Source of the DNA: an uncultured Actinomycetota bacterium
Lineage (GTDB): Bacteria > Actinomycetota > Actinomycetes > Actinomycetales > Dermatophilaceae
Reading direction: 5' to 3'
NCBI GenBank assembly: GCA_963707895.1
Contig: CAVPRS010000002.1
Span: 432,202-496,201 of the forward strand
DNA: 64,000 bases
Below, piece by piece: positions 27,826 through 62,706 of this stretch. The number at the start of each line of letters is the position of its first letter. Positions within the stretch are counted from its first letter, which is position 1. Under the pieces are notes generated by a model. That model saw only the letters and a list, made by a program, of their open reading frames with translations. It did no database searches and was not told the DNA's origin. Made by a program: the position numbers and the translations under genes.

Positions 27826-27932
27826 GCACACGAGTTTGACAGTTCCTGAGAACTTTCTTATCCACCGAACGGTCGAGATGTCCTACCCCACGAGGACGTT
27901 CTCGTCACAGGGGATCCGCGGTGCCACAGGAG

Positions 27933-35699: not shown

Positions 35700-35815
35700 G
35701 TCGGCCCCGTTCCTTTCCCTGGCAGTGCCACAAGTGACCACCATGCTCCCACAGCAGTCTGGGAAGACCCTGCAAACGGTAGGGGCCGACCCCCCACGCC
35801 AACTACGCTCAGCGG

Positions 35816-37431: not shown

Positions 37432-37445
37432 CGCAAGGAGGAACC

Positions 37446-38165: not shown

Positions 38166-39083
38166 TCAGAGCGCGCCGCCGGAGAAGGCCTTGACCATCG
38201 TGATCGCGCCGGGCCCGATGATGACGATGAACAGGGCCGGGAAGATGCACAGCAGCAGCGGGAACAGGATCTTGACGGTGACCTTCTGCGCCTTCTCCTC
38301 GGCCCGCTGACGCCGGATGACGCGCATCTCCTTGGTCTGCTCACGCAGCACCGAGCCCACGGGCAGACCGAGGCGGTCGGCCTGGACCAGGGTGCTGACG
38401 AAGGTCTTCAGCTCGGGAGCCGTGGTGCGCTCGCCGAGCGAGGCGAACGCGTCGGCGCGGGACTTGCCGATCTGGATCTCGGAGAGCACTCGGGCGAACT
38501 CACCGCCGATGGGTCCGGTGACGGTACGCGCCACCTGGAGGATCGCGGCGTCGAAGCCCTGACCCGCCTCGACGCAGACGGTGAGCATGTCCAGCGCGTC
38601 GGCGAGCCCCTTCTGCAGCTCCTGCTGCCGCTTCATGCCGGCGTTGTAGAGCAGCAGGTCGGGCAGGAAGAAGCCCACGGCACCGGCCGCGGCGGCGATG
38701 ATCAGCCCCTTGACGCTGAAGCCCACGATCAGCAGGGCCAGGATCGTGCCGATGACCAGGCCGAGGCCCTTGGCACCCATGATCCGCTCCACCGACCAGC
38801 TGACCGGGTTGCCGGCCCGGTCGAGGTTGCGGGCCATCCGGCTGCCGGTGCCCGCCGGGGAGACCCGCACGGCGAGCCCGCGCAGCCGGTTGAGCATCGG
38901 CCCGAGGACGCGGTCCTGGAGGCCGAGCTCGTTCTTGGAGACCTCGCGCGTGGTGGCGGTCTGGTTCAGCAGCTCGAGCGAGCGCGCCACACCGGTCGAC
39001 TGGGTCGACCCCATGAGCGAGGCCACGACGACCACGACGACGGCCAGGACGAAGAGCAGGGTTCCGAACAGGAGCAGTCCCAT
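38166..39083 (-). CDS. tadC: Tad platform protein TadC
   Basis: DALDMLTVCVEAGQGFD, QRAEEKAQKVTVKILFPL and IFPALFIVIIGP motifs. Confidence 0.93.
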   Translation of the reverse strand: MGLLLFGTLLFVLAVVVVVVASLMGSTQSTGVARSLELLNQTATTREVSKNELGLQDRVLGPMLNRLRGLAVRVSPAGTGSRMARNLDRAGNPVSWSVERIMGAKGLGLVIGTILALLIVGFSVKGLIIAAAAGAVGFFLPDLLLYNAGMKRQQELQKGLADALDMLTVCVEAGQGFDAAILQVARTVTGPIGGEFARVLSEIQIGKSRADAFASLGERTTAPELKTFVSTLVQADRLGLPVGSVLREQTKEMRVIRRQRAEEKAQKVTVKILFPLLLCIFPALFIVIIGPGAITMVKAFSGGAL

Positions 39084-39084
39084 G

Positions 39085-41097
39085 TCACACCTCGATCTTT
39101 ACTACCTTGGACATCCACCAGACGCCGATGGCCATGGAGATGAGACCTGCGACGGACATGACGATCCCCATGAGGGTCGTCCAGAGGAGGCTGACGTAGG
39201 CGTAGTTGGTCATCATGCTGAACGAACAGCACGCCGATGGGCAGGGCGATGAGGATGTAGCGCCGAGAGCTTGCCCTCGGCCGACAGCGTCTTCACCTGG
39301 CGCTTGAGCATCTCGCGCTCGCGCAGCGTGGCGGCCGTGGTGCGCAGGGTCTCGGCCAGGTTGCCACCGACCTCGCGCTGGATGCGGATCGCCATGGTGG
39401 TCCAGCGCATGTTCTGGCTGTCCATCCGGGCACCCATGTGGTCGAGGGCGTCACTGACGTCGGACCCGATCCGCGCCTCGGCCAGGGCTCGGGAGAACTC
39501 CTTGGCGGCCGGCTCGGGGGCGTCCTTCGCCACCGAGTCCAGCGCCTGCAGCAGGCTGAAGCCGGAGGCGAGGGAGGTGGCCACCAGCATCAGGACGTCG
39601 GGAAGGGCGGCCTCGAACTTGCGGGCGCGGCGTCTGGCCAGGTAGCGCAGGATCACCGGCGGCACGATGAAGCCGACGACGAGGCCGAGGATCAGCCCGA
39701 TGATCTGGTGCGAGCCGAACAGGACGAAGCCGCCGATCGCCGCGATGACCACCGCGAGGATGCGCAGCACGAACCACTCGCCCGCGCGCCACGGCAGGTC
39801 GGCGCGGTCCATGAGCTCCATCGTGCGGGTCGTCGACTCACGACCCGACATCACCTTGTCGCCCATGCTGACGAGCTGGGCCGAGATGGCCGTCGGGGTC
39901 GCGGACTGACGAGCCGGAGCAGGCGCCCGGCCGAAGCCGTAGGCCTCGATCGAGGTGAGCCGCTCCTTCTTCGACGACTTGAAGGCGTCACCCATGAAGG
40001 CGGTGACGAGGAAGAACAGGCCGAGCACCAGGACCGCGATGGAGGGGTAGAGCACCATCGGGGACAACGCCGAGAACGGGCTGGTGTCCCTGAGCGGCGG
40101 CGAGGCGGAGAGCGTGGGCGCCTGGGTCGTCGGCACCACCACGGGAGCGGTGTCGCCGAGGTCGACCGCCGAGCGGGCCTCGAACGGCTGGCCACCCGCG
40201 GTTCCGGTCACCACCACGTCCTGCGTGCCGGCGACACCGGCGGGTCGCTCGATCTCGAGCACCGCCTGGGACGTGAGGGCACGCGCGGCAGCCGCGAAGG
40301 CACCTGACGCCGCCGCACGGTCGCCCGCGTTGGCCACCGAGCCGCCCCCGGCCTTGGCGAACTCGCCGAGGACGCCGCTGTTGCTCTCGGGGCTCTTGAA
40401 CGCCACGACCTCGGCCCGGACCTTGGCCTTCTTCAGCGCGTCGAGGGCCTTCTGCTTCTCACTTGCGGCCCCGGCTGCGCCGCCCTCGATCTCGGCCACG
40501 GTGTCGCCACCGTCGCTGAGCAGGACGATGCTGCGCTCACCCTTGGTGCCCAGGGCGTCGACCGCATCCTGGATCCCCGCGTACAGGGACGTCTCGCCCT
40601 TGGACACGAGGCTGGCGACCTCACGGCGAACCTTCTCGCGGTTGGTGGTCGGTGCCACGTCGACACCGGAGGTCGAGGCGAACGACACCACGCCGACCTT
40701 CACGTCATCGGGGACGGCAGCCAGGAAGTCCTTGCACGGCGGACCGCACGGTGCCCATGCCGGCCGCACCCATCGACCCGCTCGTGTCGATCACGAGCAT
40801 CGTCGACCGCGGCTGCTGCGCGGCGGGCGACACCTTGACGGTTGCCGGCTTGCCGCCGACGGTCACCTTGACGGTGGTCGGGTCGACGGCGAGCGCCTCG
40901 GCACCACGCAGGACGAGGGTGCTCGAGAGCGCCTCGGTCGTCGTGCGCAGGTCACTGAGCGTGGCGGGCACCGGTTCGGCGGCCATCGCCATCGGTGACA
41001 CGACGCCGACCCCGGCGACCGCCACGAGGGCAGCGGTCACCAGCCGGCCGAGCCGGCGAAGGCCCGTCCGGTCGGCGTGGGAGGAGCGAGCCATCAT
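39085..41097 (-). CDS. tadB: VWA-domain/TadB fusion, frameshifts near 40735 and 39260
   Basis: Signal-like N-terminus, MIDAS VIDTSGSMG, LLSDGGD; then LPDVLMLVATSLASGFSL, IQREVGGNLAETL and TLSAEGKLSA. Confidence 0.88.
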
Positions 41098-42467
41098 CGA
41101 GAGCCGTTCAGGAACAGGGTGGTGGGCAGGTCGACCCCGAGGTCGGCCAGGTCCTGCGCGAACTTGGGGCGCAGGCCGGTGGCCGTGAGCGTGCCCCGGA
41201 ACCGGCCGGCGTCGTCGCGACCGGCCGCGAAGTCGAAGGTGAAGAGGTCCTGGAGGGTGATGACGTCACCCTCCATGCCGACCACCTCGGAGATCGCGGT
41301 GATCCGTCGCGACCCGTCCTTGAGGCGGGCCTGCTGGATGATCACGTCGAGCGCGCCGGCCACCTGCTCGCGGATGGCGCGAACCGGCAGGTCGACACCA
41401 CCCATGAGCACCATGGTCTCGAGGCGGGACAGCGAGTCACGCGGGGTGTTGGCGTGCACGGTGGTGATCGACCCGTCGTGGCCGGTGTTCATGGCCTGGA
41501 GCATGTCGAGCGCGGCGCCGTCACGAACCTCACCGACGACGATGCGGTCGGGACGCATACGCAGTGAGTTCTTCACCAGGTCGCGGATCTCGATCTGGCC
41601 GCGACCCTCGATGTTCGCCGGGCGCGACTCGAGCCGCAGCACGTGCTCCTGGTGCAGCTGGAGCTCGGCGGCGTCCTCGATGGTGACGATCCGCTCGTCC
41701 TCGGGGATGAACGACGAGATGACGTTGAGCGTCGTGGTCTTGCCGGAGCCGGTACCGCCGGAGATGACGATGTTGCGACGTCCCAGGACACAGGCCTTGA
41801 GGAAGTCGCGCACCATCGGCGAGAACGTGCCGAAGGCGATCAGGTCGGCGTCGTTGAACGGGTCCTGCGAGAACTTTCGGATGGTGAGCATCGCGCCGTC
41901 GAGCGCCACCGGGCTGATCACGGCGTTGACGCGGGAGCCGTCGGGCAGTCGCGCGTCGACGAGCGGGCTCGCCTCGTCGATGCGCCGGCCGACGCGGCCC
42001 ACGATCTTGTCGATCACGCGGCGCAGGTGCGCCTCGTTGCTGAAGCGGGCGTCGACCGGGTAGAGCCGACCGGCCCGCTCGACGTAGACGTAGTCGGCGC
42101 CGTTGACCATGATCTCGGAGATGTCCGGGTCACGCAGCAGCGGCTCGAGGGGGCCGTGGCCGAGGATCTCGTCGGAGACCTCCTGCGCGATGCGGGTGCG
42201 GTCGGCGTGCGAGAGCGGCGTCTGCTCCGCGTCGATGGTCTCCTGGAGCGTCTGGCGCACCTGGGCGGCCAGCTCGGCCTCGGGAAGGTGCGGGTCGTAC
42301 AGGCGCGGCCCGAGGTTGTCGATGAGGGCCTGGTGCACCCGGCCCTTGACCTCGGTGAAGGGGTCGGAGGCGCGCCGGCGTCCGCCGCGGGCCTGCTCGG
42401 TCGGTGACGTGGGCTCGGTCGGCAGTGCGCTGCGACGTGCGCTGTCGAGACGGTCGGCAAGGCTCAT
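41094..42467 (-). CDS. cpaF: Tad pilus assembly ATPase CpaF/TadA
   Basis: ISGGTGSGKTT, IEDAAEL, LRMRPDRIVVGEVR and AMNTGHDGS motifs. Confidence 0.96.
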   Translation of the reverse strand: MSLADRLDSARRSALPTEPTSPTEQARGGRRRASDPFTEVKGRVHQALIDNLGPRLYDPHLPEAELAAQVRQTLQETIDAEQTPLSHADRTRIAQEVSDEILGHGPLEPLLRDPDISEIMVNGADYVYVERAGRLYPVDARFSNEAHLRRVIDKIVGRVGRRIDEASPLVDARLPDGSRVNAVISPVALDGAMLTIRKFSQDPFNDADLIAFGTFSPMVRDFLKACVLGRRNIVISGGTGSGKTTTLNVISSFIPEDERIVTIEDAAELQLHQEHVLRLESRPANIEGRGQIEIRDLVKNSLRMRPDRIVVGEVRDGAALDMLQAMNTGHDGSITTVHANTPRDSLSRLETMVLMGGVDLPVRAIREQVAGALDVIIQQARLKDGSRRITAISEVVGMEGDVITLQDLFTFDFAAGRDDAGRFRGTLTATGLRPKFAQDLADLGVDLPTTLFLNGSR

Positions 42468-43643
42468 TTACGCCCCCTGAAGAGACTCTTGCGCTGGGTG
42501 GGTGCCGTCTCGGCGACGGGCTCACCACCGAAGCGCTGGCGGACATGGACCTCGGCGAGCTCGCGCAGCGCGAGCTGCCACGGGGCCCTTCGGGTCGTCG
42601 AGGACGATCGGAACGCCCCGGTTGACGGATGCGGGCACGGTCAGCGAGTTCGGGATGTTGACCGCGATCGGCGTCTTGATCGCGGCGACCACGTCGTCGG
42701 GGCGCAGGCCCACCTTGGCGTCGGCCCGGTTGAGCACGATGACGCGGGCGTCCTTCGGGCTGCCGATCATGTCGAGCGTGTCCATCGCCACCCGCAGGTT
42801 CTTCACGGCCGGGATGTCGAGCGTGGCGATGAGCACCAGCCCGTCGGACATGTCGCAGGCCGCGAGCACGTGCTCGGTGAACGACGGCGGGGTGTCGACG
42901 AAGACGAAGTCGTAGTGCTGACGGGCCACCTTGATCAGCTCGGTGATGGTGGTCACCGGGATCCGGTCGGCGTCGCCCGGGTCGTTCGGGGCGCAGATGA
43001 CGTCCAGGCCGCTGTCGTGGTGCTTGGTCACCAGCGAGGTGATCGCCGACTCGTCGAGGTGGCCGGCCATCGACACCGCGTCGAAGACCGACTTGCCCGG
43101 GATCAGCTGGAGGCTGATCGCGACGTCACCGAAGGCGAGGTCGAGGTCGAGCAGGAGGGTCTTGGTGCCGGTGCTCGCGAAGTAGGTGCCCAGGTTGGTC
43201 GACAGCGTGGTCTTGCCGACCCCGCCCTTGGCCGAGAAGACCGTGACGACCTTGCCCTCCTTGACCGGGCCACCGCTCGCGTGGCCGATCAGCCGGGCCG
43301 TGAGGTCGCTGCTGCGGCGCAGGGCCTCGACGAGGGCCGAGTGGTCGTCGGCGACGACGACCTCCCGGACCCCGCTGCGCAGGGCCTGGGAGAGCGCGGT
43401 CACGTCGACCCGGTGGCGGAGCAGGATGACGCCCAGCTCGGGCCGGTCGAGGCGCGCCGCCTCGGCGAGCTCACAGGCCTGCTCGAGAAGCACCTCCGGG
43501 CCGATGATCACCTGCTGGATGGCAGGGTTCTCGTGGAGGGCGCGCGCGACCATGGCCGCGGAGTCCAGGGCTTGGGTGTCACCACCGAGCGCGAACTGAT
43601 ATCGCTCCAGCGCACTCGAGTCGGCGTCCCAGAGGATGTTCAC
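42464..43643 (-). CDS. cpaE: CpaE/TadZ pilus localisation ATPase, frameshift near 42570
   Basis: Receiver-like N-terminus; FSAKGGVGKTT, LDLDLAFGDV and FVDTPP motifs. Confidence 0.9.
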
Positions 43644-44444
43644 TTACTTCACCAGCCCGGGAAGGATCGTCAGGTCGGTCGTGGTGAGCCTGGGGTCGAC
43701 CTTGAGCTCCGGGCCGCGCAGGCCCGCGTACAGCGTGTAGTTGTTGACGCCGTGGATCAGCTTGGTGGCGTGCTCGGGCGTCACCTCGACGGTGACCAGG
43801 AACTGCGGCGTGGCGTTCGCTGGCGCTGCTGCGTCCGGGTTGTCCGGGTCGGCCTGCGCGGCGCTGCGGCGTGAGCGAGTTGCGCCCCCATCGCGATGAC
43901 CTTGACGTTGTCGAGGAGCACGGAGGTCCCCTTGACGTCGGCGTCGTTGAACGCCTTGGCCTGCTCGGTCGCGCTGGTGTCCTTGAGCTTGTAGGACATG
44001 AAGAGGGTGAGGAAGGATCCGGGCCGCAGGAAGTCACCCACGCGGGCCGGGTCGCTCAGGGTCAACGAGATGGCGAGCTTGCCCGAGGCCACCTGAAGCG
44101 CCGTCTGGCCCGAGGGCGTCTCGCCGAAGCCCGCGGCCAGCACGTACTGGCCCGGCGCGATGTCGGTCAGCGCCACGAGCGCGCTGTTGCTGTCGTCGAC
44201 CGTGGTCAGCGCGCCCGCCGGGAGCGACCGCGCGGCGACCTGGGTCTGGGTGATCTCCTGGAGCCTGCATGGCCTCCTTGAGCGAGGTGCCCGCCGGGAC
44301 GACGGCGTTCGAGACGTAGACCGTCGTGGGGCTGGCCGCTGCGACCGCCCGGTTGTCCGCCCCACGCGCGTAGAGCAGCACGAGAACGGCGCCGATCAGC
44401 GCGATGACCGCTGCCGCCGCGATGGCGAGGATGCGTCGACCCAT
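43644..44444 (-). CDS. cpaB: Flp pilus assembly protein CpaB/RcpC, frameshifts near 44270 and 43880
   Basis: N-terminal TM, SAF segment (VPAGTSL...IAPGQYVL), ARVGDFLRPG and VLLDNVKVIAMG motifs. Confidence 0.88.
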
Positions 44445-44500
44445 GATGAATGTCCTTCAGGAAGTAGTGGAGCGTGTGAGTTGTGAGTACGTGGAGGAGG

Positions 44501-45771
44501 TCAGCCGGCGGGGACGACGGCGTAGGTGCCGAAGTTGCCGCCGCCGCTGGGCGGACCGGAGATGGCCTGGGAGGTGAGCTCGCCCTTGAGGAACCAGCCG
44601 GAGATGCAGCGGTCGCCGCCGCTGCAGGGGAACTGGTTGCTGACCAGGCTCTTGACCTTGTTCGGCTGCCGGGGACGTTGAGGCGGTAGCCGCTGAGGTA
44701 GAACTGCGCGTACCCGGCGCGGTGGAAGTAGGCGTTGCTGCCGTTGCCGGTGGTGCACCCGTTGACCGGGGGCTCCTGTGCCGGCAGGGAGTTGTTGGTG
44801 CAGTCGAAGATCGGGATGTTGATGACCTTGCCGACCAGGATGCTCAGGTTGCACGAGATGTTGTTGCCGGTGTCGGTGTTCATCCAGTGGTACGGGTAGT
44901 CGACGAACTGGCACGGGTCGGAGGTGGTCTGCAGGGTGCCGAAGCCGCCGGGCAGGGCGTGGCCGCTCCAGGTCGGGCAGCTGCTCGGCATGGTCGCCCC
45001 GCCGGGCGGGTTCTGGGTCAGGAGGATGACCTCCTGGCCCTGGGTCTGCGCCGGCGGGGTCGCGGCCGCGGCCGGCCAGGGCGGCTGCCCGGCGCCGCCG
45101 TAGCCGTAGGCGTTGGACGCCGTTGTAGACCGGCGAGGGGTAGTAGGCGCCGCCGCCGCCGCCGGTGGTGCCACCGGTGGCGTGCTGCCAGTCGCAGGCC
45201 GAGAAGGTGATCGGCAGCTCGCTGGTCTGGTCGGCGGGGGTGCCCACGGCGGCGCGGGCGCAGGCGCCGGCCGAGCTGGTCGTGGAGTTGCCGTTCAGCC
45301 CGGCGATCCAGTTCTGCATGAAGTTGTTGCGCCCGGCACCGTTCGCGGTCTGGGTGCGGGTGCGCACCTCGACGTAGGGCAGGCCGGTCATCGCGGCCAG
45401 GGCCGGCGGCAGCGGGCGAGCAGTCGGCCCAGGCGCCCGTGGACGGGATGGCGCGCAGTCGACAAGGGTGCTGCCCGGCATGTTCGGTCGCGCACTGCGA
45501 CTGGATGCCGGAGACCTTGTCGTTGGCGTTGTTGTCGACCAGGTTGGCCAGCGAGTCGGCGCCGGCGACGCAGTTGTTCTTGGCGCACGACTGGGCCAGC
45601 GACATCGGCGGCCGCGTCGGCGGAGTTCTGCAGCTGGCGCTTCTCGACCAGGATCTGGCCGACGTCGAGGGAGAGCGCGAGGAACCCCAGCAGCACACCC
45701 CCGGCGAGGAGGACGGCCACGACGGTGACGACGGCACCGTGCTCGCGACGACGTGAGCGGTCGGACCTCAT
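44501..45771 (-). CDS. tadG: TadG-like pilus-associated protein/adhesin, several frameshifts
   Basis: EHGAVVTVVAVLL...DVG...RQLQNSADAAA; Cys-rich body, PGGFGTL, GNGSNAYF; ATGA overlap with tadE. Confidence 0.8.
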
Positions 45772-46243
45772 CCTCCGCACCTCATTTCGGCGGTACCAGC
45801 GGGGATCGGCGGGGTGAGCGCCCCACCGAAGAGTCGGGACGCGGGCCCGAGGACGATGTAGGTGAACCCGCTCACGGTCACGGTCACCCGCTGCCGGTCG
45901 AGCGGCCCGGGAGAGCTCGGGCAGTCGCCAGTGGTGGAGTGCCGGCGGCGGTGAGCGTGTTGGCGGCGCCCTGGACCAGCCAGTAGGAGTTCGTGTTCGC
46001 CCCGCCCTGCACACCGGTCAGCGACTGGCTGATCCGGGTGTCCGAGGCGGCGGTGGTGTAACCGAGGGCCCGGCTGCGGGCCCCTTCACGCGCGGCGTTG
46101 ACCACGATGTTCTGGGTGTAGAAGAACCGACCGAAGTCGATGATGCCCCCCACGATGAGAAGCAGGAGGGGCAGCACGATGGCCATCTCAACGGCTGCGG
46201 CGGCACGCTCACGGCGCGGCACGGCGGCGAGTCGGCGACTCAT
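45768..46243 (-). CDS. tadE: TadE-family pseudopilin, frameshift(s) in 3' half
   Basis: ERAAAAVEMAIVLP...IIDFG...AAREGAR; ends EMRCGG. Confidence 0.85.
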
Positions 46244-46395
46244 GCGCTCCACTTCCTTTCCCGGTACGTATGGGCACCACAGAGGGGGACGAAGGGGTAT
46301 TCTCCGCCAGCTCACCACGCCAAGTTAAACACTGCTCGGCTGGGAGCTGGCCGGACGAAGGCTGAGACGACTCTGGGAGCCGGCTCGGTGACCTG

Positions 46396-46563
46396 TCAGA
46401 TGCTGGTGGCGGCGTTCGTGAAGAACGTCGAGAGGTTGGTGCCCAGGAGCGTCACCGCCGCGATGATCACGAGCGCGATGAGCATGACCATGAGGGCGTA
46501 CTCGACCGCGGTCGCGCCCTCCTCGGCGGAGGACCTGAACCTGCGAGTGAGTGCTGTGGTCAT
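46396..46563 (-). CDS. flp: Flp pilin 3 (55 aa)
   Basis: EEG/ATAVEYALMVMLIALVIIAAVTLLGTNLSTFFTNAATSI. Confidence 0.93.
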   Translation of the reverse strand: MTTALTRRFRSSAEEGATAVEYALMVMLIALVIIAAVTLLGTNLSTFFTNAATSI

Positions 46564-46609
46564 TCGACACTTCCTTGGGTGCTGGGCCGAAGGCCCGGAG
46601 CGAAAGAGA

Positions 46610-46656
46610 GAGGACGTCGGTCGCGATGGGGTCACCCGACCGCGACCGACGCCCTC
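46610..46656 (-). terminator. Probable intrinsic terminator between pilin 2 and pilin 3
   Basis: 16-bp stem (one G-U pair) GAGGGCGTCGGTCGCG/CGCGACCGACGTCCTC, followed by TCTCTTTCG on the minus strand. Confidence 0.65.
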
Positions 46657-46672
46657 CTCGTGAAGCTTGTGC

Positions 46673-46840
46673 CTAGACGCTGCTCGCGACGGTGTTGAAC
46701 AGGCTGCTGAGGTTGGTCCCGAGAAGGGCCACAGCGACGATGATGACGATTGCGATCAGTGCCACCATCAGGCCGTACTCAACGGCGGTCGCCCCCTGCT
46801 CCGAACGAACCGTCTGAAGTCGAGCGAGTGCCTTGCGCAT
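46673..46840 (-). CDS. flp: Flp pilin 2 (55 aa)
   Basis: MRKALARLQTVRSEQG/ATAVEYGLMVALIAIVIIVAVALLGTNLSSLFNTVASSV. Confidence 0.94.
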   Translation of the reverse strand: MRKALARLQTVRSEQGATAVEYGLMVALIAIVIIVAVALLGTNLSSLFNTVASSV

Positions 46841-46880
46841 GTCGAGCTCCTTTGAGTCGTTGGAGAGTTGGTGGGGTGGA

Positions 46881-47049
46881 TCAGACGCTGGTGGCGACCT
46901 TGTTGAACAGGCTGCTGAGGTTGGTGCCCAGGAGGGCCACCGCGACGATGATGACGATCGCGATGAGGGCGACCATGAGGCCGTACTCGACGGCGGTCGC
47001 GCCCTTCTCCGAGCGGAGGCTTCTGGAGCTTGATGAGTGCCTTGGTCAT
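46881..47049 (-). CDS. flp: Flp pilin 1 (one extra base near 47019)
   Basis: 169 nt; removing one base gives MTKALIKLQKLRSEKG/ATAVEYGLMVALIAIVIIVAVALLGTNLSSLFNKVATSV. Confidence 0.9.
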
Positions 47050-47264
47050 GATGGGAGTGCCTTTCGGGTCTGATGGTCGGTGCATGTCGAGCAGGCACAA
47101 CACTGTCAGCCGCAGCACGCCGTGGCGATGGGCCGATGGGGCGGTGTCGCACCTCCGAACGGACCGAGCACATCGACCGTTCGGCCGATCGCCACGCGCG
47201 GCGGCGACCACGCTCGAATCTGCGATGCTTCGGCCCCTGAGCACTCGGATCGAGAAGGTGATGT

Positions 47265-48685: not shown

Positions 48686-48697
48686 CCGGCGCCGGCC

Positions 48698-50056: not shown

Positions 50057-50129
50057 GCCGTCCTCACTGTCTCGCATCGCTTTTCCCAAGCCGGCTCGGG
50101 CCGTCGGGGGCTCGACCATAATGCATCGG

Positions 50130-51726: not shown

Positions 51727-51733
51727 GACCGAG

Positions 51734-53920: not shown

Positions 53921-53927
53921 CGGCCGC

Positions 53928-55748
53928 TCAGGCGCATGCCCAGTCGCCGAAGGCGGTGCGTGGTCGTAGCACCTCCACATCGGCTTTGAGCCAGATCATC
54001 GGCGTCTGGGGTCGCGCGAGCTTCGCCACTACGTCGTAGTATGCGCCTCGTCGAACCCGTACGGGAAAGTAAGACAAGGCCCAGATCACGGTCATCACCT
54101 GGCGATCGCAGAACCACTGCAGAGGCGCGATTGTGACACGTGGACCTCGTTCAAGAGCCAGTTCGGCGGCGTCGTCTGCAGTCGGGAACGTGGTGAAGAA
54201 GAACGCTCGACCCAGAGGTCGCCGACCGACTGGGCACCGACAGCCGGGCGAGGTTCCGTGAGGTTCATCGTGGGGGTTGAGGCAGAGATGCCGAGCTGTC
54301 CCCGGCTTCGCGATCTTCGCATCGTTGGCGCCCATTTCATGGGCAGGAGCAGCGTGCGGCCCCCGAACTGAGCGGGCGTGTGTGACGTGTAGACTCGGGT
54401 CCGGCCGCCGATCCCGGCGAAGGAAGACATGGACCACGCGGCCGCTGCCGCTAGGCAGGCGCCAGTGACGATTTACCTTCGACCAACGGGCTGCCCAGCC
54501 CGCCCATGGGCAAGGTCGAGGAGTACCAGGCAAGCGAGGGCCGAAGGCGAAGGCGGCATGCCCGATCTCGCCAGAGAATGGCTGGTTGGTGCCGAATGAT
54601 AGACGTAGGGTAGAGCCAACAGCATGAGCACCGTCATCGCCAACGGTTCTCGTCTTCGCAAGGAGCGAAGGAAGGCTCGCCGTTCGGCTGCGATCAGCAG
54701 GACGACCCCGAGTGCGATCGAAAAAAAATCGCTACCGCCTGATCGCCCATCGATGTCTGCGCGAGGAGGGATGCGAGCAACGATGCTGTGACTCCCGCAA
54801 CCGCGAGGGCCGAGACAACCACGGCCAAGGCGACGATGGATGCCCCACGGCTCTCCTGCTGCTTTGTCACGAACAGGCCCACCACGGCCAGGCCTAGCAG
54901 CGGTAGACCGACGACCACCCCCGCGATGGGCTGGGCCGTGAAGCCAAACAGGCCAGCCACGGAAGGGTACGCACCTGCCGCCCGGACCAGCCGAGTCCGC
55001 CAGCCACATACCGGAAGGCCTCAACCGGGGTCATGCCGCACACCGCCAACACCAGGCCTGCGGACACTGCTCCAGCAGCGACCCACGCGATCACCATCCG
55101 CCTTGAGAGCACGCGCATCAGCCAGCCGGCCGCAGGAACCGCCACCATCAAGGCGACGCCGCTGCTCGGCTTCCCCACGGCAGTCAGCACCGTTCCCAAC
55201 CCTGCCACGGCGCCCCCGACCATCGGCGATTTCTGAGCCCGAAGTAGCCCAAGAGAAACAACGGCGAGGCCCAACAGCGCCAAGACGCGGTACCCGGGTA
55301 TCCGCGGCGTGAAGGCGAAGGCCGTGGTCGCTATCCCCACGATAGGGATCACGACGGCGAGCCTGGCGGTCCACCGCATGGCGGGCATACCGTGCTGCGC
55401 GGTCACCCGCAGAGCGGTGTCGCTGAGAACTGCGACCGACGCGAAGAGCGCGACCATTCCCAGGATACGGAAGGTGGCGACATCATCGCCCAGCACCCCG
55501 AACAGTGGGTGAAGTAGAGGGCCGATCAGAAATGGTTCGCCGATCGCCATCGTCGAACTTGGGTCGCGAATGATGGAGAGCAGATAGCTCTCGTCACCCA
55601 AGTCGACTCCCCGACCAGCGAATCCGAGGGTGAGCGCCAGCAACACGGCGGCGCACGCGACCGGACAGAGCATCGCGATGGCCGTATATCGGCGCGCGAG
55701 GGCCCGGTCTGCCGTGCCCGCCGGCCGCTCAGTCGTCGTAAGCACCAC
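53928..55748 (-). CDS. Membrane protein, putative GT-C (paralog B1), multiple frameshifts
   Basis: GVDLGDESYLL first loop; RIPGYR, GRAFFF and EVLRPR shared with 60919..62706. Confidence 0.58.
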
Positions 55749-56514
55749 GTGGCCACGCATGAATCGTGGTGAATGCGGAGATCGGGCGAAAACCGAAGGA
55801 GGCCCACGCCGACTGAACGGCGGAGTTCGCCGCTTGGGTAGAGATGACAAGCCGCTCGGCTCCAAGCTTCGACGCCTCGGAAAGCAGCCCCTGAAGCAGG
55901 GCCCGGTAATGCCCCGACTTGCGTTGACGGGTGACAGTACCCGCCAGTTCGACCTCCAGACTCCCGTCGGCCAACACGAGGGTCGTCGCCAGAGACATCA
56001 CTTCGCCGCCCTGGACCAGGGCAAAGCACCTCGCCGGGGACTCGGCCGCTGCCCTGCTGCCCCACTCGACATACCCTGCAAGGACGTCGTCCGCGTCGAA
56101 CTGAGAGCTGGCGGAGTAGTGATTGGGGTAGTTCTCGAAGACATCCCTCACGAGCTCAGGCCATTGCGTGGTGAGGGCCGGTTCGTTCGCCAGGGACACA
56201 AAACCGAGGGGTGAACCGATGGCCCCGATGGTTGGTGCGCTCCAGTAGACCAAGGTGTCCGCCGGGTACAGGACCCAGCCCATTTCTGAAAGCCTCTGGC
56301 CCACACCGGTCATACGCGCTGGCCACCTGATGATTGCAACCTTGGGATCGAGTCGGGACACATGCCGAGCGATCTCCTGAGCGGCATGGCAGGCGCTGCC
56401 GTCCCCTTCGCCTTCGCGGACCGTGATGCGAGCTGTCCCCAAGCCGAATCGGGCAGTGTCGTAGGGACTCAGCCCTGCTGTGATACCACGGCCGCGCAGG
56501 TCATCCCAGCTCAT
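55729..56514 (-). CDS. wecD: WecD/RffC-like GNAT dTDP-aminosugar N-acetyltransferase
   Basis: YDTARFG, YVEWG and VELAGT...LVISTQAANSAVQ motifs; ATGA-coupled to wecE. Confidence 0.65.
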   Translation of the reverse strand: MSWDDLRGRGITAGLSPYDTARFGLGTARITVREGEGDGSACHAAQEIARHVSRLDPKVAIIRWPARMTGVGQRLSEMGWVLYPADTLVYWSAPTIGAIGSPLGFVSLANEPALTTQWPELVRDVFENYPNHYSASSQFDADDVLAGYVEWGSRAAAESPARCFALVQGGEVMSLATTLVLADGSLEVELAGTVTRQRKSGHYRALLQGLLSEASKLGAERLVISTQAANSAVQSAWASFGFRPISAFTTIHAWPRGAYDD

Positions 56515-57683
56515 CGACCCGGCCGGAAGCGGCAAACGGTCGTCACAACGCGCTCCACTTCCTCCTGTGATAAACCCGGATGAAGCGGGAGCCTGACGAT
56601 CCGCGAGGCTCGATCGGCCGTGACATCACACGGCGCAGGTGTGCGGCCGAGACGACGACCAGCGGGCGAGCTGTCGAGCGGCTGGTAGTGGAACACAGCG
56701 GAGATCTCGCGCTCGCCGAGGAACTTGATCAATCCTGCCTGGTCCCTTGCTTCCGGCATCATGAGGTAGAAAACGTGCGCCGGATGGTCACAGCCGGAGG
56801 GTACGTACATGCTCTCGACGCCATGGCGTGCGCACCAGTGAGCGAGTTGAGTGGCGTAGGAAGTCCAGATCTCACGGCGACGTCGTTGCATCGATGCGAA
56901 GGCACTCACCTGTGCCAGCAGTAGCGCGGCATCGAGCTCGCTCGGGAGATAAGACGACCCAACGTCCTGCCACGTGTACTTGTTGACGGCGCGACGAAGG
57001 ACTCGGCGCGATCAGTGCCCTTCTCACGGACGATCTCGAGCCCGCTCAGCGAACCGGGCATCGTCGATGAGGAGCGCGCCACCTTCCCCCGACGTGATGT
57101 TCTTCGTGTCGTGGAAGCTCTGCGCGCCAAAGGCGCCGAAGGTTCCCAGGTGGCGACCTTGCCAGTACGCATCCATGCCATGGGCGTTGTCCTCGACCAC
57201 CGCGACGCCCAAGGGTTCCGTCAAACGGAGTAGGTCATCGATGTCGGCGGCAACCCCGCCGTAGTGCACGACGAAAACAGCTCGCGTCCGCTCCGTTAGC
57301 GCGGCGGCCACGCCCCGCACGTCCAGGTTCAGCGTGTCCGGCCTGATGTCGACGAAGACCGGCGTGGCTCCCCGGAGCGCGATGGCCGTCGCCGTCGACG
57401 TGAACGTGAAACTAGGGCAGATCACCTCGTCGCCGGGTCGCAAGTCCAGGAGGATCGCGGCAAGCTTCCAGGGCGCGTCAGTCCCAGACGTGGTTAGCAG
57501 TGCGTTGCCAGTCCCCGTGAAGGAACGTACCCACTCGGTGGCACGGTGGGTGAATGCTCCATCGCCGTGCCACATCGGTGATTCGAGCACCTGCCCCAGA
57601 AGCTGCGCCTCGAGCCCGGTCCGGAATGGCGCGGTGAACCGGATCGGAGTGACGGTACGTGTGCCGGCTCGTGCGCGGGTCAC
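56511..57683 (-). CDS. rffA: dTDP-4-amino-4,6-dideoxygalactose transaminase (WecE/RffA-like), frameshifted
   Basis: GDGAFT, PSFTFTSTA, VEDNAHG, SFHDTKNITSGEGG, REKGTDR and KYTWQDVGSSYLPSEL motifs. Confidence 0.88.
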
Positions 57684-58728
57684 CGCTCGGCCGCCTTGAG
57701 GTTATGCGGCTCCGCGGGCCTTGCATCAGCAGCGTCGGAACGATCTCCGATGTCGCGCAGAAACTGCGCCGTGGGTAGAGGCTGGCCGAACTCGGAGGGC
57801 CTGACGACGTACGCCGGTCGTTGCATTGATCGAACGTGGAGGCGCCCGATGTACTCACCGATGATGCCGAGTGACAGCATGACGGTGCCTGCGACGAGGC
57901 CCAACATTGCGATGGTCGTGGTGAAACCTGCTACCTGTACACGTCCCATCCAGTACATGACCAGGACGGTGATGAGAGCAAGGAGCCCGAACCCAGAGAC
58001 GACCAGGCCCAACAGCGTTACGAGCCGCAACGGCAGGACGCTGTAGCCCGTGGCCATGTTCGCTGCATGCAGCATCAGACGCGTCACGGAGTAGTTCGAG
58101 CGACCCACCTGTCGCAGATCCATCTCCACAGGCGCACGTCGCACCGAGGTGGTCACCCACGACAGCACCACGTCGAGGGAGACGAAAGGATCCGTGACGT
58201 GTCCAAAGCCCTCTCGCAGGTCTGTGCGGAAGGCTCGAAAGGCACTGACATCGCGCGCATTGGGAACGCCGGCCAAAGCCAATGCAGATTTGATGGATCG
58301 CGAGGCAAGGGATCGCACCACGCCGTGCTCCTCTTCGACCGGCACGCCGTAGACGAGGTCAACAGAAGCGTCACTGAGTGGAGCAAGCAGCGTGGGAATC
58401 TCTTCAGGTCGGTGCTGAAGGTCGTCATCCATGGTCACTGTCACGCCGAAGCGGGCGCGCGCCACACCAGCCAGCAGCGCATTGTGCTGTCCGTAATTAC
58501 GCCGCAGCCTTACGACTCTCACTTTGTCGGCCGCGTAGCGGGCCGCCTGCTCGCGCGCCACCGCTGCAGTGTCGTCCGGCGACCCATCGACGACCAGGAT
58601 CACTTCGTGCGTCGGGGTGATGCGCCCGAGCGTCGCGATCAGGCGTGCGACGAGGTCGGGGAGCGTGTCGCGTGACCTGTAGCAAGGGATCACGCAACTG
58701 TGACCCCATCCGCGTGCACCGACGCCAT
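57680..58728 (-). CDS. GT2 polyprenyl-phosphate glycosyltransferase (ArnC/GtrB-like), frameshift near 58697
   Basis: IPCYRS, VVDGSPD, RNYGQHNALLAG and TMDDDLQHRPEEIP motifs; two C-terminal TMs; IIGEYIGR. Confidence 0.9.
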
Positions 58729-58973
58729 TGCGTTCACGACTCCATCCGGATGGTGAGGAAAGCAGTGCGCGAGGAAGAGGGTGTGGAATCCGTCCACCAC
58801 GTCAATCACGCCCTTCCCCGTGCCGCGGACATCCGAGTGTTCTCCGCGCCGCCACCGTACGACGTGCCGTCCCATGGACGGAAGGCGCCGATTCGCTATC
58901 TAGCCGTTCGGGGGACCCAACGAAGTCCGTTCGGCCTGTCGTCCGCCGGGTCGACGGACCGGCAGCGTCTCTG

Positions 58974-60218
58974 ATGGAGGATGTCGGGGTGTCGTCGCCC
59001 GGCGGCCCTCCGGCCTCACATACGCCAAGCCACTCAAGCAGGTGGCTGGGTTCGCCGCTGGTACCTATCGCGATCTACGCGATAGCCGCCTGGTCTCAGC
59101 CGCCATGGTCATCTGGCAAGCCCCGCACCAGCCGGACCTCACTTCCGACCCCGGTTGGCACGTCGAAGGCACGCGGCCTGCCAGTCCCTCGTACTGGCAG
59201 GTCCTTTCCAACTGGGACGGGCAGTGGTTCAAGACGATCGCGCTGCACGGCTACGAAGGGGCGGACCTCGGCGGCGTGCCTACTCAGACGTCCTTGGCCT
59301 TTCCTCCCGGGTTCCCTCTCTTGGTGGGCGCCTTCATGCGGCTTACGGGGGTCGTTCGAGGTCGTCGCATCGGTCCTCAGCACTGTGGCCGCGGGAGTGG
59401 GCATGGTGCTGTTGCACAGGTGGCTTCGGGAGACACGCGGCGCCACAGTCGCACTGGTTGCAGTGGCAGTGCTCTCGTTCTTCCCCTCGTCTCCCGTGTT
59501 CCAGATGGCCTACAGCGACGGGCTCGCCCTGGCAATGCTGGTCGTGGCGACCCGCGCCGCCGTCGATCGCCGATGGGCACTTCTTTTCGTGGCCTCCGCG
59601 GCCCTGACGTTTACCCGACCGGTCCTGCTCGCCCTGGTGCTATTCATCCTGGTCCTGGAGTGGCTCCGACCCAGGACTGACACAGGGGGTCGCCGCCTGG
59701 ATCCAACATCCGTCCTGGCAGCTTGCGGCCTGAGCCTGATGGCGTTCGCCTGGCCGGCCATCGCCGGTTTGATCGCGCACTCGCCCATGGCCTACTTCGA
59801 CACACTCGCGGCGTGGACGGGGAATGGCCGGACAGGGGAGGGCTGGTTCATCGGTTTGTGGAACTTGGGACTCCACCTCGAAGCGGCGCTCATGGTGGCG
59901 CTCGTCATCATGATCTTCTATCTACGATGGCGCCGACGAGGAGATGACACCCCGCCGGACCACTTGGGTGCATGGGCAGGAATTTACATGCTCTTCGTCT
60001 TGATGACGACGCCACCGGGCACCGGCATCATCCGACACGCGCTCCTCACACTGGTCCCGCTGGGCACCTTCGGCCCGATGAGCACCCGCCAGCTCTCCGG
60101 CAGAGCCCGCGCAGCATTGCTGGGGGTTGTTCTCGTGGCGGAACTGGCTCTCCAGTGGTGGTGGGTCGCCAACGTTCTCATCGTGAACGACTCGCCATCG
60201 GAGTCGCTTCTGCCCTAA
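58974..60218 (+). CDS. PIG-V-like GT-C glycosyltransferase, frameshifted
   Basis: NWDGQWFKTIALHGY, LAFPPGFP, FFPSS...AYSDGL and TRP motifs. Confidence 0.75.
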   Translation: MEDVGVSSPGGPPASHTPSHSSRWLGSPLVPIAIYAIAAWSQPPWSSGKPRTSRTSLPTPVGTSKARGLPVPRTGRSFPTGTGSGSRRSRCTATKGRTSAACLLRRPWPFLPGSLSWWAPSCGLRGSFEVVASVLSTVAAGVGMVLLHRWLRETRGATVALVAVAVLSFFPSSPVFQMAYSDGLALAMLVVATRAAVDRRWALLFVASAALTFTRPVLLALVLFILVLEWLRPRTDTGGRRLDPTSVLAACGLSLMAFAWPAIAGLIAHSPMAYFDTLAAWTGNGRTGEGWFIGLWNLGLHLEAALMVALVIMIFYLRWRRRGDDTPPDHLGAWAGIYMLFVLMTTPPGTGIIRHALLTLVPLGTFGPMSTRQLSGRARAALLGVVLVAELALQWWWVANVLIVNDSPSESLLP

Positions 60219-60283
60219 CCGGCAGGCTCCCTGACTTGGGCTGCCGCGGCCCTTGCGCTGTAAGCCGTGGCATACGTTGAGCC

Positions 60284-60748
60284 TCAGCCAGATCGCGGTC
60301 GGCGCGGCCTGAAGGTCAGCCTGAGATGGCCCAGGAAACTGAACGTGAAGATTGGGATGAACACGATCAGTTGGGCAATGAAGGGCGCGATCCCGAAGCC
60401 CTCGACTAGCGCAGGAACGCCGATGAAACTCATGGCCGCGCCGGTCCACCAGATCCCCATGAAGGTCAGGAACTGCCTCGGCAGCGGTCCCTCTGCAACG
60501 AAGACGTGCCGGCGGTAGACCGGAAACGCGTAGCAGATTGCGACCACCTGCGAGGCAGCAACTGCCGCCATGTAGGGAACGTCAGCCACGAGGGCGCCCG
60601 CAAGGACGCACAGGTACACCACCTGCGTCGTGCCTCCCGCAAGTCCATAACGCACGACCGTGGGCCACGATTGCCACATGCGGCCCATGCGGGATCGCGG
60701 GAGGACCGCAAGGACGGGTACGTCGATGGGGACCACTACCTGTGCCAC
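60284..60748 (-). CDS. GtrA-family polyprenyl-phosphate-sugar flippase
   Basis: VRYGLAGG, four TM segments, YRRHVF and FLGHLRLTFR; start uncertain. Confidence 0.85.
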   Translation of the reverse strand: MAQVVVPIDVPVLAVLPRSRMGRMWQSWPTVVRYGLAGGTTQVVYLCVLAGALVADVPYMAAVAASQVVAICYAFPVYRRHVFVAEGPLPRQFLTFMGIWWTGAAMSFIGVPALVEGFGIAPFIAQLIVFIPIFTFSFLGHLRLTFRPRRPRSG

Positions 60749-60918
60749 GGCTCCTCCTCATGCCGCGCGTGATGCACGGTGGACCCACGCTAGGTGCGGC
60801 GAATCGCCAGGCCAATAGGAGCGGCTCACTCTTGGCCGTTCGGACGACCCTCCGTGGCCGGATGATTGAGTCGGTCGACCGAGACGCGCCAGTCGTTTGA
60901 CGCCCGGTGAGCCCCGCG

Positions 60919-62706
60919 TCAGCACCCCAGCTTCTGCGCGACGGTGGACCTGGGTCTGAGAACCTCCATGCGAATCCCCCGCCACTCCGGCGGGCCTTGG
61001 GTTGGTGAGAACGTGGCTACTCGGTCGTAGTCGACATCAAGGTCCAAGAGACCCCGGGTGAACGCTTCGCTCACATCCCAAGGATTGTCATCAGCGTGAA
61101 TCAGCCACGCCCCAGCGCGCTCCTCACAGCTTTCCCAGGCGAGAGATGATGCCGCAGCTGCCTCTGCTCGGGGGAAGATTCCGAAGAAGAACGCACGGCC
61201 CACCGGGTGCGGCCCCAGTTGGAACCGGTAGCCGGATCCGATCCCCGTCAGGTCTACAACCGGTGTCCGGTCCGTGATCCCGCCAGCACTTCTGACGTCC
61301 GACAACAGGTCCAACACCGCCGCGTCCGGCGATGTGAGCATGAGGGTTCCCCCTGCGACGCCGACGTCCCTCATCGGACCGCCTTCCGGGCCGAGGCCGA
61401 CTTGCGCAACGAGCATCGCAAGGAACGTCGCCGAAACCGACAGGCAGATGGCACTCGTGAGCAGCGCTCTGAACCGCTGCACTCCTCCCGATCCGTTCGA
61501 ACAGCGGGCGACAATCACTGCGGCGAGCACCCAGAAGGTCGACGCGAGCGCCATCGTCTCCGTGAAGGGCAAGTTCGTTCCCACGCTGGCTACATAGGGC
61601 GCGACGGCCAAGAGCGCCAGGAGGGAGATCAGGCGCCTGTCCTTCGTGAGCGGCGCGTCACCCCGCCGACCGTGTGCAAGCAGGATGGCAAAGGCCCACG
61701 CTGGAATGACCAGGGCCATCGGGAGGACGGCATTTGGGTCGCCGTTCACGGGGAACCTCAGTGGGGAGGACACGACGATGGCGACTGCGAGCAAGAACGC
61801 CACGACGGTCGCCGCGATCACGAGGGATGACAATCGTGGTCGCCGACTGTGCACGAAGTCAGCCAGCAGACCGGTGGCCAGCAACGGAAAGCCCAACAGG
61901 ACGAAACCAGCCAGATCTGGAGGGACCAGGCCCAGCATTCCGCGCACGGATGTATACCCACTCAAAAGCTGGATCTGGGTGTAACCCCGATACAGGTACG
62001 TCACTGTTTCGATCGCGTCCATTCGCGAGATGAGCATTGTGGTCCCAGCGGCCAGCAAGACCCCTAGCGCAGTCGCCGCAGCCAAGACCTTCGTCACCGA
62101 CTTGGCAGCCAGCAATACGCACGGGACCACGATCATCACAGCAACGCCCGTCGTAGGACGCGCCACGACCGCTAGCCACACTGCAGTTCCCAGTAGGAGC
62201 CCGGCCCGCCACGCGTGGCCGCGCGAGACCCACACCAGAGCAACCGCCACCAGCATCAGCGCCAGGAAGCTGATGCTCCGGTAACTTGGCACGCGGACGT
62301 TGATCGCGCACGCGCTGACCACCGACGCGACGACCACAATGATTCCCCAGCCACGTCCGGACGCACCCGTCCCCCGGGGTTCGCGCCACTCTTCGACGTA
62401 GCGCAGCACCTCATAGGCCATCCATCCGGCAGTGGTACCCAGCACCACGAGCCCGAGGACCCTAAGTAGCGCGATGTCTTGACCAAGGGCCGCGTACGCA
62501 GGATGGACGAGGAAGCCGAACAAGAAGACTTCCCCGTTATCGCGGTTCGCACCCGGGTCGGCGATCAACGACAAGAAGTAGCTCTCGTCGACGAAGTCCA
62601 GCCCATAACGCGCCAGCAGGAGCGCCGCGCCGAATACTGCGGCAGCCAAGAGAGCTACGACGTGCACGTACGACAACCGAGGACGGTCGACCGGTGGCAT
62701 CCTCAC
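60919..62706 (-). CDS. Membrane protein, putative GT-C (paralog B2)
   Basis: Intact 595-aa ORF; GLDFVDESYFL first loop, about 13 TM segments, extracellular C-terminus. Confidence 0.65.
   Translation of the reverse strand: MRMPPVDRPRLSYVHVVALLAAAVFGAALLLARYGLDFVDESYFLSLIADPGANRDNGEVFLFGFLVHPAYAALGQDIALLRVLGLVVLGTTAGWMAYEVLRYVEEWREPRGTGASGRGWGIIVVVASVVSACAINVRVPSYRSISFLALMLVAVALVWVSRGHAWRAGLLLGTAVWLAVVARPTTGVAVMIVVPCVLLAAKSVTKVLAAATALGVLLAAGTTMLISRMDAIETVTYLYRGYTQIQLLSGYTSVRGMLGLVPPDLAGFVLLGFPLLATGLLADFVHSRRPRLSSLVIAATVVAFLLAVAIVVSSPLRFPVNGDPNAVLPMALVIPAWAFAILLAHGRRGDAPLTKDRRLISLLALLAVAPYVASVGTNLPFTETMALASTFWVLAAVIVARCSNGSGGVQRFRALLTSAICLSVSATFLAMLVAQVGLGPEGGPMRDVGVAGGTLMLTSPDAAVLDLLSDVRSAGGITDRTPVVDLTGIGSGYRFQLGPHPVGRAFFFGIFPRAEAAAASSLAWESCEERAGAWLIHADDNPWDVSEAFTRGLLDLDVDYDRVATFSPTQGPPEWRGIRMEVLRPRSTVAQKLGC

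Follow-up and report, generated by a model that had tools for sequence, protein, structure and literature searches.

Introduction

In very many bacteria, adhesion, the formation of biofilms and the uptake of DNA are driven by Tad/Flp pili, which are mostly regarded as minimal filaments without modification. In Pseudomonas aeruginosa/paraeruginosa group IV, TfpW is a GT-C glycosyltransferase encoded beside the pilin gene, which has a GtrA-like partner and uses a polyprenyl-phosphate-linked sugar as donor; the locus comprises pilA-tfpW, the GtrA-like PsPA7_6247 and DprE1/2, and in some species sugar biosynthesis genes cluster with pilA-tfpW (bioRxiv 10.1101/2020.04.19.049825). In streptococci, GtrB/PgtC2 and PgfS/PgfM1 modify Ser/Thr-rich protein regions (10.1101/2024.05.05.592596), and Flp1 of A. 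actinomycetemcomitans has been reported to be glycosylated (PMC6182317). In the literature found, no enzyme that glycosylates any Flp pilin has been identified, and full-text literature yielded no description of a GT-C or other glycosyltransferase system at actinobacterial tad pili. Here, a stretch of 64,000 nucleotides (the window; G000:C2:432202-496201) from a genome of the family Dermatophilaceae (G000; 3.59 Mb, 11 contigs, 85% complete, 0.03% contamination) is analyzed for a tad operon and an adjoining island of membrane proteins and sugar enzymes that may glycosylate the pilus.

The reading we favor, at about even confidence, is that two modules lie side by side: a tad-linked set of GT-C transferases acting on a component of the pilus, and a semi-autonomous cassette that makes and delivers a lipid-linked amino sugar. 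The window thereby adds a complete candidate donor pathway joined to tad-linked transferases, an arrangement conserved in two genomes of the genus, and at the same time shows that transferases and donor cassette behave separably in evolution.

Predicted GT-C transferases at the tad locus

The window holds a minus-strand tad operon at 38166-47048, back-to-back with a divergent block of ~15.5 kb at 47214-62706 that encodes polytopic membrane proteins and sugar enzymes and no other kind of gene; searches against Pfam, NCBIfam and PDB sequences bore out this layout, which the original prediction had read from the DNA. G002, which belongs to the same genus and is 100% complete, carries the entire tad and island arrangement in synteny. 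It served as the reference for frame comparison, and homology to it set the gene limits in the lower-GC membrane-gene region, where frame-plot gene calling is noisy. The six membrane proteins in which acidic first-loop motifs had been noticed are here called B1, B2, B3, C, A' and A, and the PIG-V-like protein is called D; a fused MFS/spermidine synthase gene borders the block on its far side, after A.

B1 (47214-48682, plus strand), with 54-88% piecewise identity to its G002 counterpart and 3 frame switches, is divergent from the pilin gene flp1 across an intergenic region (47049-47213) that measures 166-216 bp by choice of the B1 start, in agreement with the 215 bp first reported. B2 (48701-50410, minus strand; 2 frame switches near the C-terminus) is the ortholog of the protein that was folded (P0005), and B3 (50300-51585, plus strand, start approximate; 3-4 frame switches) is a third paralog. 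C (51746-53917, plus strand) belongs to a polytopic family of ~730-aa type and is split into 7 or more pieces, the last third of the gene containing 5 stops. A' (53928-55865, minus strand) is a divergent, broken paralog of A traced by homology to G002, and A itself (60919-62706, minus strand) is an intact protein of 595 aa. D (58904-60218, plus strand) has one frame switch near 59340; its intact orthologs at two other loci (L013, L017) had no Pfam match at E<=1, and several relatives of the L017 protein carry PF04188 or the name PIG-V mannosyltransferase.

None of A, B, C and D matched a Pfam or NCBIfam family. Profile searches of PDB sequences, solved GT-C enzymes included, likewise gave no match for A, B or C, nor did hhalign connect any of the three with another; they are thus separate families, of which A and B are recognizable by fold alone. 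An AlphaFold2 (AF2) model of the clean G002 ortholog of B, built on a 70-sequence alignment, reached a predicted local distance difference test score (pLDDT) of 95.6 and a predicted template-modeling score of 0.93. Its top 20 VIA structural matches are all GT-C enzymes at Z 10-16.1 (STT3 16.1, DPY19 15.8, ALG12 15.1, Pmt4 15.0, PglB 14.8, ArnT 13.6, AglB 13.6, AftD 12.7), the next unrelated match stands at Z 5.9, and Foldseek agrees (probability 1.00). For A, an AF2 model with pLDDT 93.3, built with 111 family sequences, again has only GT-C structures among its top 20 matches, at Z 8.8-13.4 (Pmt1/2 13.4, ArnT 13.1, Pmt4 13.1, AglB 12.1), and Foldseek gives the same picture; the ESM Atlas offered weak GT-C leads. 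Judged by these high-confidence models, A and B are GT-C glycosyltransferases, and the fold suspected for the six acidic-loop proteins thereby extends to five of them.

The first-loop acids point in the same direction. In B, D17 is conserved in >=90% of the 70 sequences and lies in the loop that joins helix 2-11 to helix 19-31, and in A, D38 is invariant and E39 present in >=90% of the 111 sequences, directly after the first transmembrane helix (residues 11-31). Acidic residues in the first extracytoplasmic loop are a mark of GT-C enzymes, and the conservation of the Asp would argue for catalysis. Together with the GT2 and GtrA genes nearby, the fold suggests that A and B may draw on a polyprenyl-phosphate-linked sugar.

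B is ~450 aa long, and in the model its C-terminal part (~337-441) forms a small alpha/beta domain which, taken alone, weakly matches the C-terminal globular domains of AglB (Z 5.9) and PglB (Z 4.9). As for whether B is an oligosaccharyltransferase of the STT3/PglB/AglB type (GT66), no PF02516 match was found at E<=1 and no WWDxG motif in the consensus; the conserved motifs are instead W-G-N-L-H-G-G and N-P-I-D-A-F, and the STT3-like similarity of the fold is common to all GT-C enzymes. An N-L-S/T sequon is present in many of the Flp pilins linked to B, and with the match of the C-terminal domain this makes a weak lead to acceptor recognition of the oligosaccharyltransferase kind. The idea of an N-x-S/T sequon, taken from that domain, is kept as a lead only: its counts (12 of 19 loci versus 6 of 19) came from a flawed split by the B2-type profile alone, and within-genus contrasts were mixed.

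B tracks tad loci. A scan of GTDB with the B profile, at one genome per species, gave 34 loci. In 23 of these, Tad proteins are encoded no farther than 10 kb from B, a number that rises to 25 when loci recognized by the Flp motif only are added. The B-tad loci include Terrabacter, Intrasporangium, Terracoccus, Nocardioides, Propionibacteriales metagenome-assembled genomes (MAGs) and Solirubrobacterales, and their gene orders differ. A census of 120 genomes of the Dermatophilaceae, each >=90% complete, counted a genome as B-positive when it held a B2-type or B1-type gene and as tad-positive when it held a stringent CpaF match. The B2-type profile alone (E<=1e-10) under-calls the family; 9 of 20 loci it called B-negative held B1- or B3-type genes beside flp. 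B was found in 40 genomes and stringent CpaF in 57: 38 genomes have both, 2 have B with tad not found, 19 have tad with B not found, and in 61 neither was found. B thus occurs in 2 of 63 genomes without a stringent CpaF match, and the odds ratio, uncorrected for relatedness among the 120 genomes, is 61.

The two genes are also close to each other. In the 38 genomes with both, B and CpaF are at most ~11 kb apart in 32 and 13-18 kb apart in 2; in 3 more they sit on separate contigs of fragmented assemblies, and in 1 they are far apart. Of 48 loci, 22 have B no more than 600 bp from a flp gene (divergent in 16, upstream on the same strand in 6), and 7 others have it within 3 kb. C was found in 12 of the 120 genomes, within 8 kb of CpaF in 7 of them, including one without B; in 2 others it stands beside a B paralog 21-27 kb away, and 3 are indeterminate. 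The expected linkage to tad in other genomes therefore holds strongly for B and also for C. For D it holds in part; D accompanies B in 6 of the 34 loci.

B, in its three copies, together with C and probably D makes up the leading candidate set for an activity that glycosylates the Tad pilus. In the first of the two modules, B1-B3, C and probably D would be extracytoplasmic GT-C transferases of the tad locus, moving a sugar from its polyprenyl-phosphate carrier onto some component of the pilus.

The candidate donor cassette

The second module comprises the sugar enzymes and A. The WecE-type dTDP-4-amino-4,6-dideoxyhexose transaminase (DegT/WecE; 56511-57683, minus strand) was identified through its G002 ortholog, which scores 486 bits against a cut-off of 375 (NCBIfam NF008687) and 435.1 against 434.85 (TIGR02379); the window copy is ~80% identical to that ortholog but broken. 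What had been taken for a simple frameshift in this gene turned out to be two compensating indels ~40 nt apart, near 57024. The neighboring GNAT-type acyltransferase (55729-56535, minus strand) had been called WecD-like, a label that its weak GNAT matches (Pfam E 1e-3, RimI 1e-4) and the lack of any NCBIfam family at E<=0.001 do not sustain; it is recognized by those matches and by conservation of the cassette, and its function may be analogous to that of WecD.

The predicted ArnC/GtrB-type GT2 polyprenyl-phosphate sugar synthase (57680-58693, minus strand; Pfam GT2 E 9e-23) has the two C-terminal transmembrane helices described for it, which are visible in its sequence. It aligns over its full length with structures of ArnC, its closest solved relative (E 3e-36, ArnC residues 1-298 of 322), its other near solved relatives are GtrB (E 5e-25) and DPMS, and its best NCBIfam models are ArnC and then PgfS, both below their equivalog cut-offs (ArnC 143 versus 529 bits). 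The GtrA-family small membrane protein (60284-60748, minus strand), a putative flippase of lipid-linked sugars, was confirmed at 45.4 bits against a cut-off of 26.1 (PF04138), and an RmlB gene lies elsewhere in the genome. Of the proposal that the sugar is Fuc4NAc, the transaminase half is plausible from the WecE equivalog match, and the acetyltransferase half stands back because that enzyme was not identified as WecD.

From these parts, WecE and the GNAT would turn dTDP-4-keto-6-deoxyglucose, the product of RmlB, into a dTDP-4-acetamido-4,6-dideoxyhexose that would be Fuc4NAc or else the epimer at C4. The ArnC-like GT2 would load this sugar on polyprenyl phosphate, GtrA would flip it, and A (together with the broken A') would transfer it to an acceptor that is not necessarily the pilus. 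In this genus the cassette adjoins the genes of the first module, and it may supply these as well.

The distribution of the cassette bears on its independence. The GNAT-WecE-GT2-GtrA set is kept in 8 other genomes of the family sample, of which 3 have it near tad (G056, G091, G119) and 2 are fragmented assemblies. Five contiguous genomes have both cassette and tad (G000, G002, G056, G091, G119), and in every one of them the two are no more than ~20 kb apart. G067 is one of the genomes in which CpaF was not found, and there the cassette encloses an A-family gene, from which we read A as most likely the transferase that belongs to the cassette; elsewhere in the genus, A occurs in 2 of 24 other genomes. 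Sugar genes are enriched near B, being found at 13 of 34 loci versus 10 of 176 random 21-kb tiles (DegT 6 of 34 versus 1 of 176). A single multi-transferase pathway dedicated to pilins is not supported in the form originally proposed, because the cassette and A also occur in 3 genomes with no CpaF found and most B-tad loci have no sugar genes nearby. The most fitting description of the cassette and A is a semi-autonomous module for a lipid-linked amino sugar, one with a tendency to settle next to tad but present elsewhere as well.

Other lineages hold other sugar genes in this place. In Terrabacter and Intrasporangium a different cluster follows flp-B-D (Gmd, epimerases, DegT, GT2s and a GT4); in Terrabacter tumescens (L013 12808-20358), GDP-mannose 4,6-dehydratase, epimerase, DegT, GT2 and GT4 genes of a different amino-deoxyhexose pathway occupy the position of the WecE cassette. 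In G119 (L056 235-3865), a hexapeptide acyltransferase gene takes the place of the GNAT beside WecE-GtrA-GT2, and an NhaA antiporter gene separates the cassette from flp.

The same distribution raises the question whether the whole 15 kb might decorate a cell-envelope glycopolymer such as a wall polysaccharide, a lipoglycan or a teichoic-acid-like polymer, after the models of GtrA/GtrB/GtrX, CsbB/GtcA/YfhO and mycobacterial Aft/Emb, with the adjacency to tad reflecting co-inheritance in a single accessory island or local remodeling of the wall around the pilus rather than glycosylation of pilins. This explanation, to which we give about half the weight of the two-module reading, accounts for the presence of the cassette with an A-family GT-C in genomes where tad was not found. 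It also accords with the A family itself, which is large (1,715 representatives in an exhaustive HMMER search, where a word-indexed search gave 4 proteins) and present at none of the 34 B loci, and with the appearance of AftD, AftA/B, Emb, ArnT and PimE among the structural matches. G+C content, ~71% in the window, is 64-65% over 54-62 kb and 69-76% in the remainder. The low stretch (54000-62000) overlaps the donor cassette and A/A', which fits a separate acquisition of that module, and the drop, together with insertion sequence elements in the G002 island, fits a mobile accessory region. The evidence from B speaks against an envelope role for the block as a whole: B is almost confined to genomes with stringent CpaF, is placed at pilin genes in varied gene orders and in distant taxonomic orders, and is lost along with tad, which would be unexpected of a general wall enzyme. 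On the D gene, a separate observation is that in G002 it is split by transposase genes of the IS110 and IS3 families (L011 5850-8515, G002:C20), which marks the island as a target of mobile elements.

The tad operon and possible acceptors

The Tad/Flp (type IVc) gene set of Flp, TadE/G, CpaB, TadZ, CpaF, TadB/C and prepilin peptidase is present, with one Peptidase_A24 gene sitting elsewhere in the genome (G000:C10:5910-6236). In transcription order, the operon comprises three flp genes, TadE, a TadG-like protein, RcpC/CpaB, TadZ, CpaF, a VWA-TadB fusion and TadC. The three Flp pilins that had been predicted are thus there, and their place is the 5' start of this minus-strand operon rather than its end. 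The flp genes (46396-47048; Pfam Flp_Fap, PF04964, and direct reading of the DNA) include the intact flp3 (46396-46563) and flp2 (46673-46840), each encoding 55 aa with a G/ATAVEY processing site, and flp1 (46881-47048), which has a 1-nt insertion early in the gene. As had been noted from the sequence, the mature Flp tails are rich in Ser, Thr and Asn (…GTNLSSLFNTVASSV), and the pseudopilins of the window are Ser/Thr-rich too.

All further operon genes are on the minus strand. TadE (45884-46318; Pfam TadE E 1e-18) is followed by the TadG-like pseudopilin/assembly protein (44504-45932; Pfam Tad PF13400), which is intact at 478 aa in G002 and appears in the window as six high-scoring segment pairs in alternating frames (~5 frame switches). 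RcpC/CpaB (43647-44444; Pfam RcpC) has 2 frame switches and aligns to G002 in three frames. Next come the TadZ/CpaE-like ParA-family ATPase (42522-43643; Pfam AAA_31/CbiA/ParA) and the CpaF/TadA secretion ATPase (41094-42467; Pfam T2SSE E 2e-64), which is 90% identical to that of G002. Of the platform proteins, the fusion of a von Willebrand factor A (VWA) domain with TadB (39213-41205; Pfam T2SSF and VWA_2) has one frame switch near 40736 and aligns in two frames to a 701-aa open reading frame (ORF) of G002, and TadC (38166-39083; Pfam T2SSF E 3.5e-19) is an intact ORF and the last gene of the operon. TadB with an N-terminal VWA domain has the same long form (~630-700 aa) in G002 and at Nocardioides loci. 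Downstream of tadC and convergent with it, a gene for a LuxR-type regulator (35630-38100, plus strand; GerE helix-turn-helix) is conserved in G002 and may regulate the tad locus; its upstream neighbor is a partner gene without assigned identity. Some 10 kb past tadC, an additional and intact pair of pseudopilin genes (26229-27865, minus strand) encodes a TadE-like protein of 198 aa and a TadG-like protein of 352 aa, both with Ser/Thr/Gly-rich extracellular parts, and these could be alternative acceptors of glycosylation.

Under the two-module reading, the likeliest acceptor of the B-type transferases would be Ser/Thr in the surface-exposed C-terminal tail of Flp, with the Ser/Thr-rich pseudopilins as the alternative. 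The last 12 residues of Flp hold a mean of 3.4 Ser/Thr at 30 B-linked loci versus 1.7 in 7 genomes without B (one-sided p 0.004), a comparison among related genomes with relatedness uncorrected and only those 7 in the null group. As a sign from the acceptor side, this enrichment is suggestive only.

A further possibility is that the role of B, C and D at the Tad machinery is a different one, either glycosylation of the pseudopilins (TadE, TadG-like) or another Tad protein, or service as non-catalytic factors that help to assemble or anchor the pilus through the thick monoderm wall. We consider this the least probable of the explanations weighed here, and quite unlikely. It agrees with the linkage of B to the tad locus as a whole, with the Ser/Thr/Gly-rich pseudopilins of the window, the second pair among them, and with some Nocardioides and Solirubrobacterales loci in which B lies several kb from flp. 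The conserved first-loop Asp, which would argue for catalysis, and the fact that B is most often the immediate neighbor of flp both count against it.

Frame breaks and the state of the locus

Relative to G002, ~25-30 frame switches occur in 31 kb of the window. Specifically, there are 5 in TadG, 2 in CpaB, 3 in B1, 2 in B2, 3-4 in B3, 1 in D, at least 6 plus stops in C and at least 3 in A', and the flanking two-component and regulator genes are broken too. A, GT2, GNAT, GtrA, CpaF, TadZ, TadC, flp2 and flp3 are intact. The junctions lie mostly outside long homopolymers. With models run on the whole genome, neither rpoB nor rpoC found a match in this MAG, so a core region is absent from the assembly. 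A test of assembly noise by ORF length did not discriminate, as the N50 of coding-like ORFs is 450 aa here and 457 aa in isolates.

Most of the breaks are probably consensus noise in a long-read MAG, and some genes may be genuinely decaying, above all C with its five stops, which may be a pseudogene. The stronger alternative, that the locus as a whole is decaying in this organism and the breaks are true mutations that leave the pilus and glycosylation genes non-functional here, appears unlikely to us, slightly more so than the envelope explanation. The number of switches and their position mostly away from long homopolymers would suit it, as would the stops in C, the insertion in flp1 and a genome-wide ORF N50 so close to that of isolates that noise is not obviously uniform. 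Yet completeness, contig number and contamination are what indel-noisy long-read MAGs typically show, breaks also affect the flanking two-component genes, and the two compensating indels within ~40 nt in WecE form a pattern typical of consensus errors. The nine unbroken genes named above, and a protein identity to G002 that stays at 65-90% over the broken ones, likewise argue against decay.

Weighing the two-module reading

Several observations weigh against the two-module reading. Nearly all genes of the first module are frame-broken in this MAG, C with stops as well, so the system may be non-functional in this organism. The acceptor, whether pilin, pseudopilin or wall polymer, is one we infer; the Flp differences in Ser/Thr and in N-x-S/T are small and rest on 7 null genomes with relatedness uncorrected, and within-genus contrasts in N-x-S/T are mixed. 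One third of the tad-bearing genomes of the family (19 of 57) have no B, and at the majority of B-tad loci no sugar genes are seen within 10 kb. Because tad loci are mobile as whole islands, joint inheritance could make the linkage look stronger than it is. The cassette is found in 3 genomes with no CpaF found (G049, G067, G093) and is therefore not dedicated to the pilus, and in G119 it stands beside tad with no B gene and with a Flp tail that has no Ser/Thr at all. Finally, the Caulobacter Tad pilus is without glycan density by cryo-EM (PMC10710030).

A broader proposal, which we put forward tentatively and at a little below even confidence, is that the Tad/Flp pili of many Actinomycetota are glycoproteins. 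A dedicated and so far unannotated GT-C superfamily, with genes that neighbor those of the pilins, would transfer sugars from polyprenyl phosphate to the exposed Flp tail by O-glycosylation, and interchangeable donor cassettes docked at the locus, of the Fuc4NAc type in the window and for a GDP-mannose-derived amino sugar in Terrabacter, would give lineage-specific glycoforms, much as in the glycosylation islands of flagellin and type IVa pilins. Going by gene context and fold alone, supposedly bare Tad pili would probably be sugar-coated. If true, the glycan coat would alter how aggregation, adhesion by pili and recognition by phages are understood, among others in Actinomycetota of soil and activated sludge. 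In addition, the locus supplies three or four protein families outside current domain databases, and the B family offers concrete candidate genes in cultured Terrabacter, Intrasporangium, Phycicoccus, Nocardioides and Flexivirga.

Comparison with known systems

Compared by description and not by sequence, TfpW appears to be the closest functional analog of B. In both, a GT-C gene lies beside the major pilin gene (for B, within 600 bp of flp in just under half of the loci, and at the B1-flp1 gap in the window), and both proteins carry conserved acidic residues in the first loop, which is periplasmic in TfpW. TfpW has 646 aa with a C-terminal tetratricopeptide repeat (TPR) domain and transfers D-arabinofuranose to type IVa pili of Gram-negatives, whereas B is shorter, has no TPR in its model, often comes as 2-3 paralogs and belongs to Tad/Flp (type IVc) loci of monoderm Actinomycetota. 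The streptococcal GtrB/PgtC2 and PgfS/PgfM1 systems resemble the window in being Gram-positive, extracytoplasmic and two-step, with a GT-A enzyme that makes the undecaprenyl-phosphate-linked sugar and a GT-C enzyme that transfers it. They act on many membrane-associated proteins and adhesins, with Glc or GalNAc and with no linkage to a pilus, whereas the GT-C proteins of the window are linked to one machine.

The donor side recalls two systems. In ArnC/ArnE-F/ArnT, ArnC loads an N-acylated 4-amino sugar on undecaprenyl phosphate and the GT-C enzyme ArnT (Z 13 to both A and B) transfers it, but the sugar nucleotide is UDP-Ara4FN, where a dTDP-6-deoxyhexose derivative is predicted here, and the target is lipid A, of which a monoderm has none. 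With WecE/WecD of the enterobacterial common antigen, the window shares a transaminase of the WecE equivalog and an acyltransferase gene that overlaps it in one operon. It differs in having no WecF, Wzx or Wzy and an acyltransferase without a WecD match, and its sugar would move as a monosaccharide on polyprenyl monophosphate.

Within the same phylum, actinobacterial Ppm1/Pmt and mycobacterial Aft/Emb/PimE are likewise GT-C systems that use polyprenyl-phosphate sugars extracytoplasmically, and the leading structural matches include Pmt and AftD. These enzymes have no sequence-level similarity to the families of the window and no association with tad loci.

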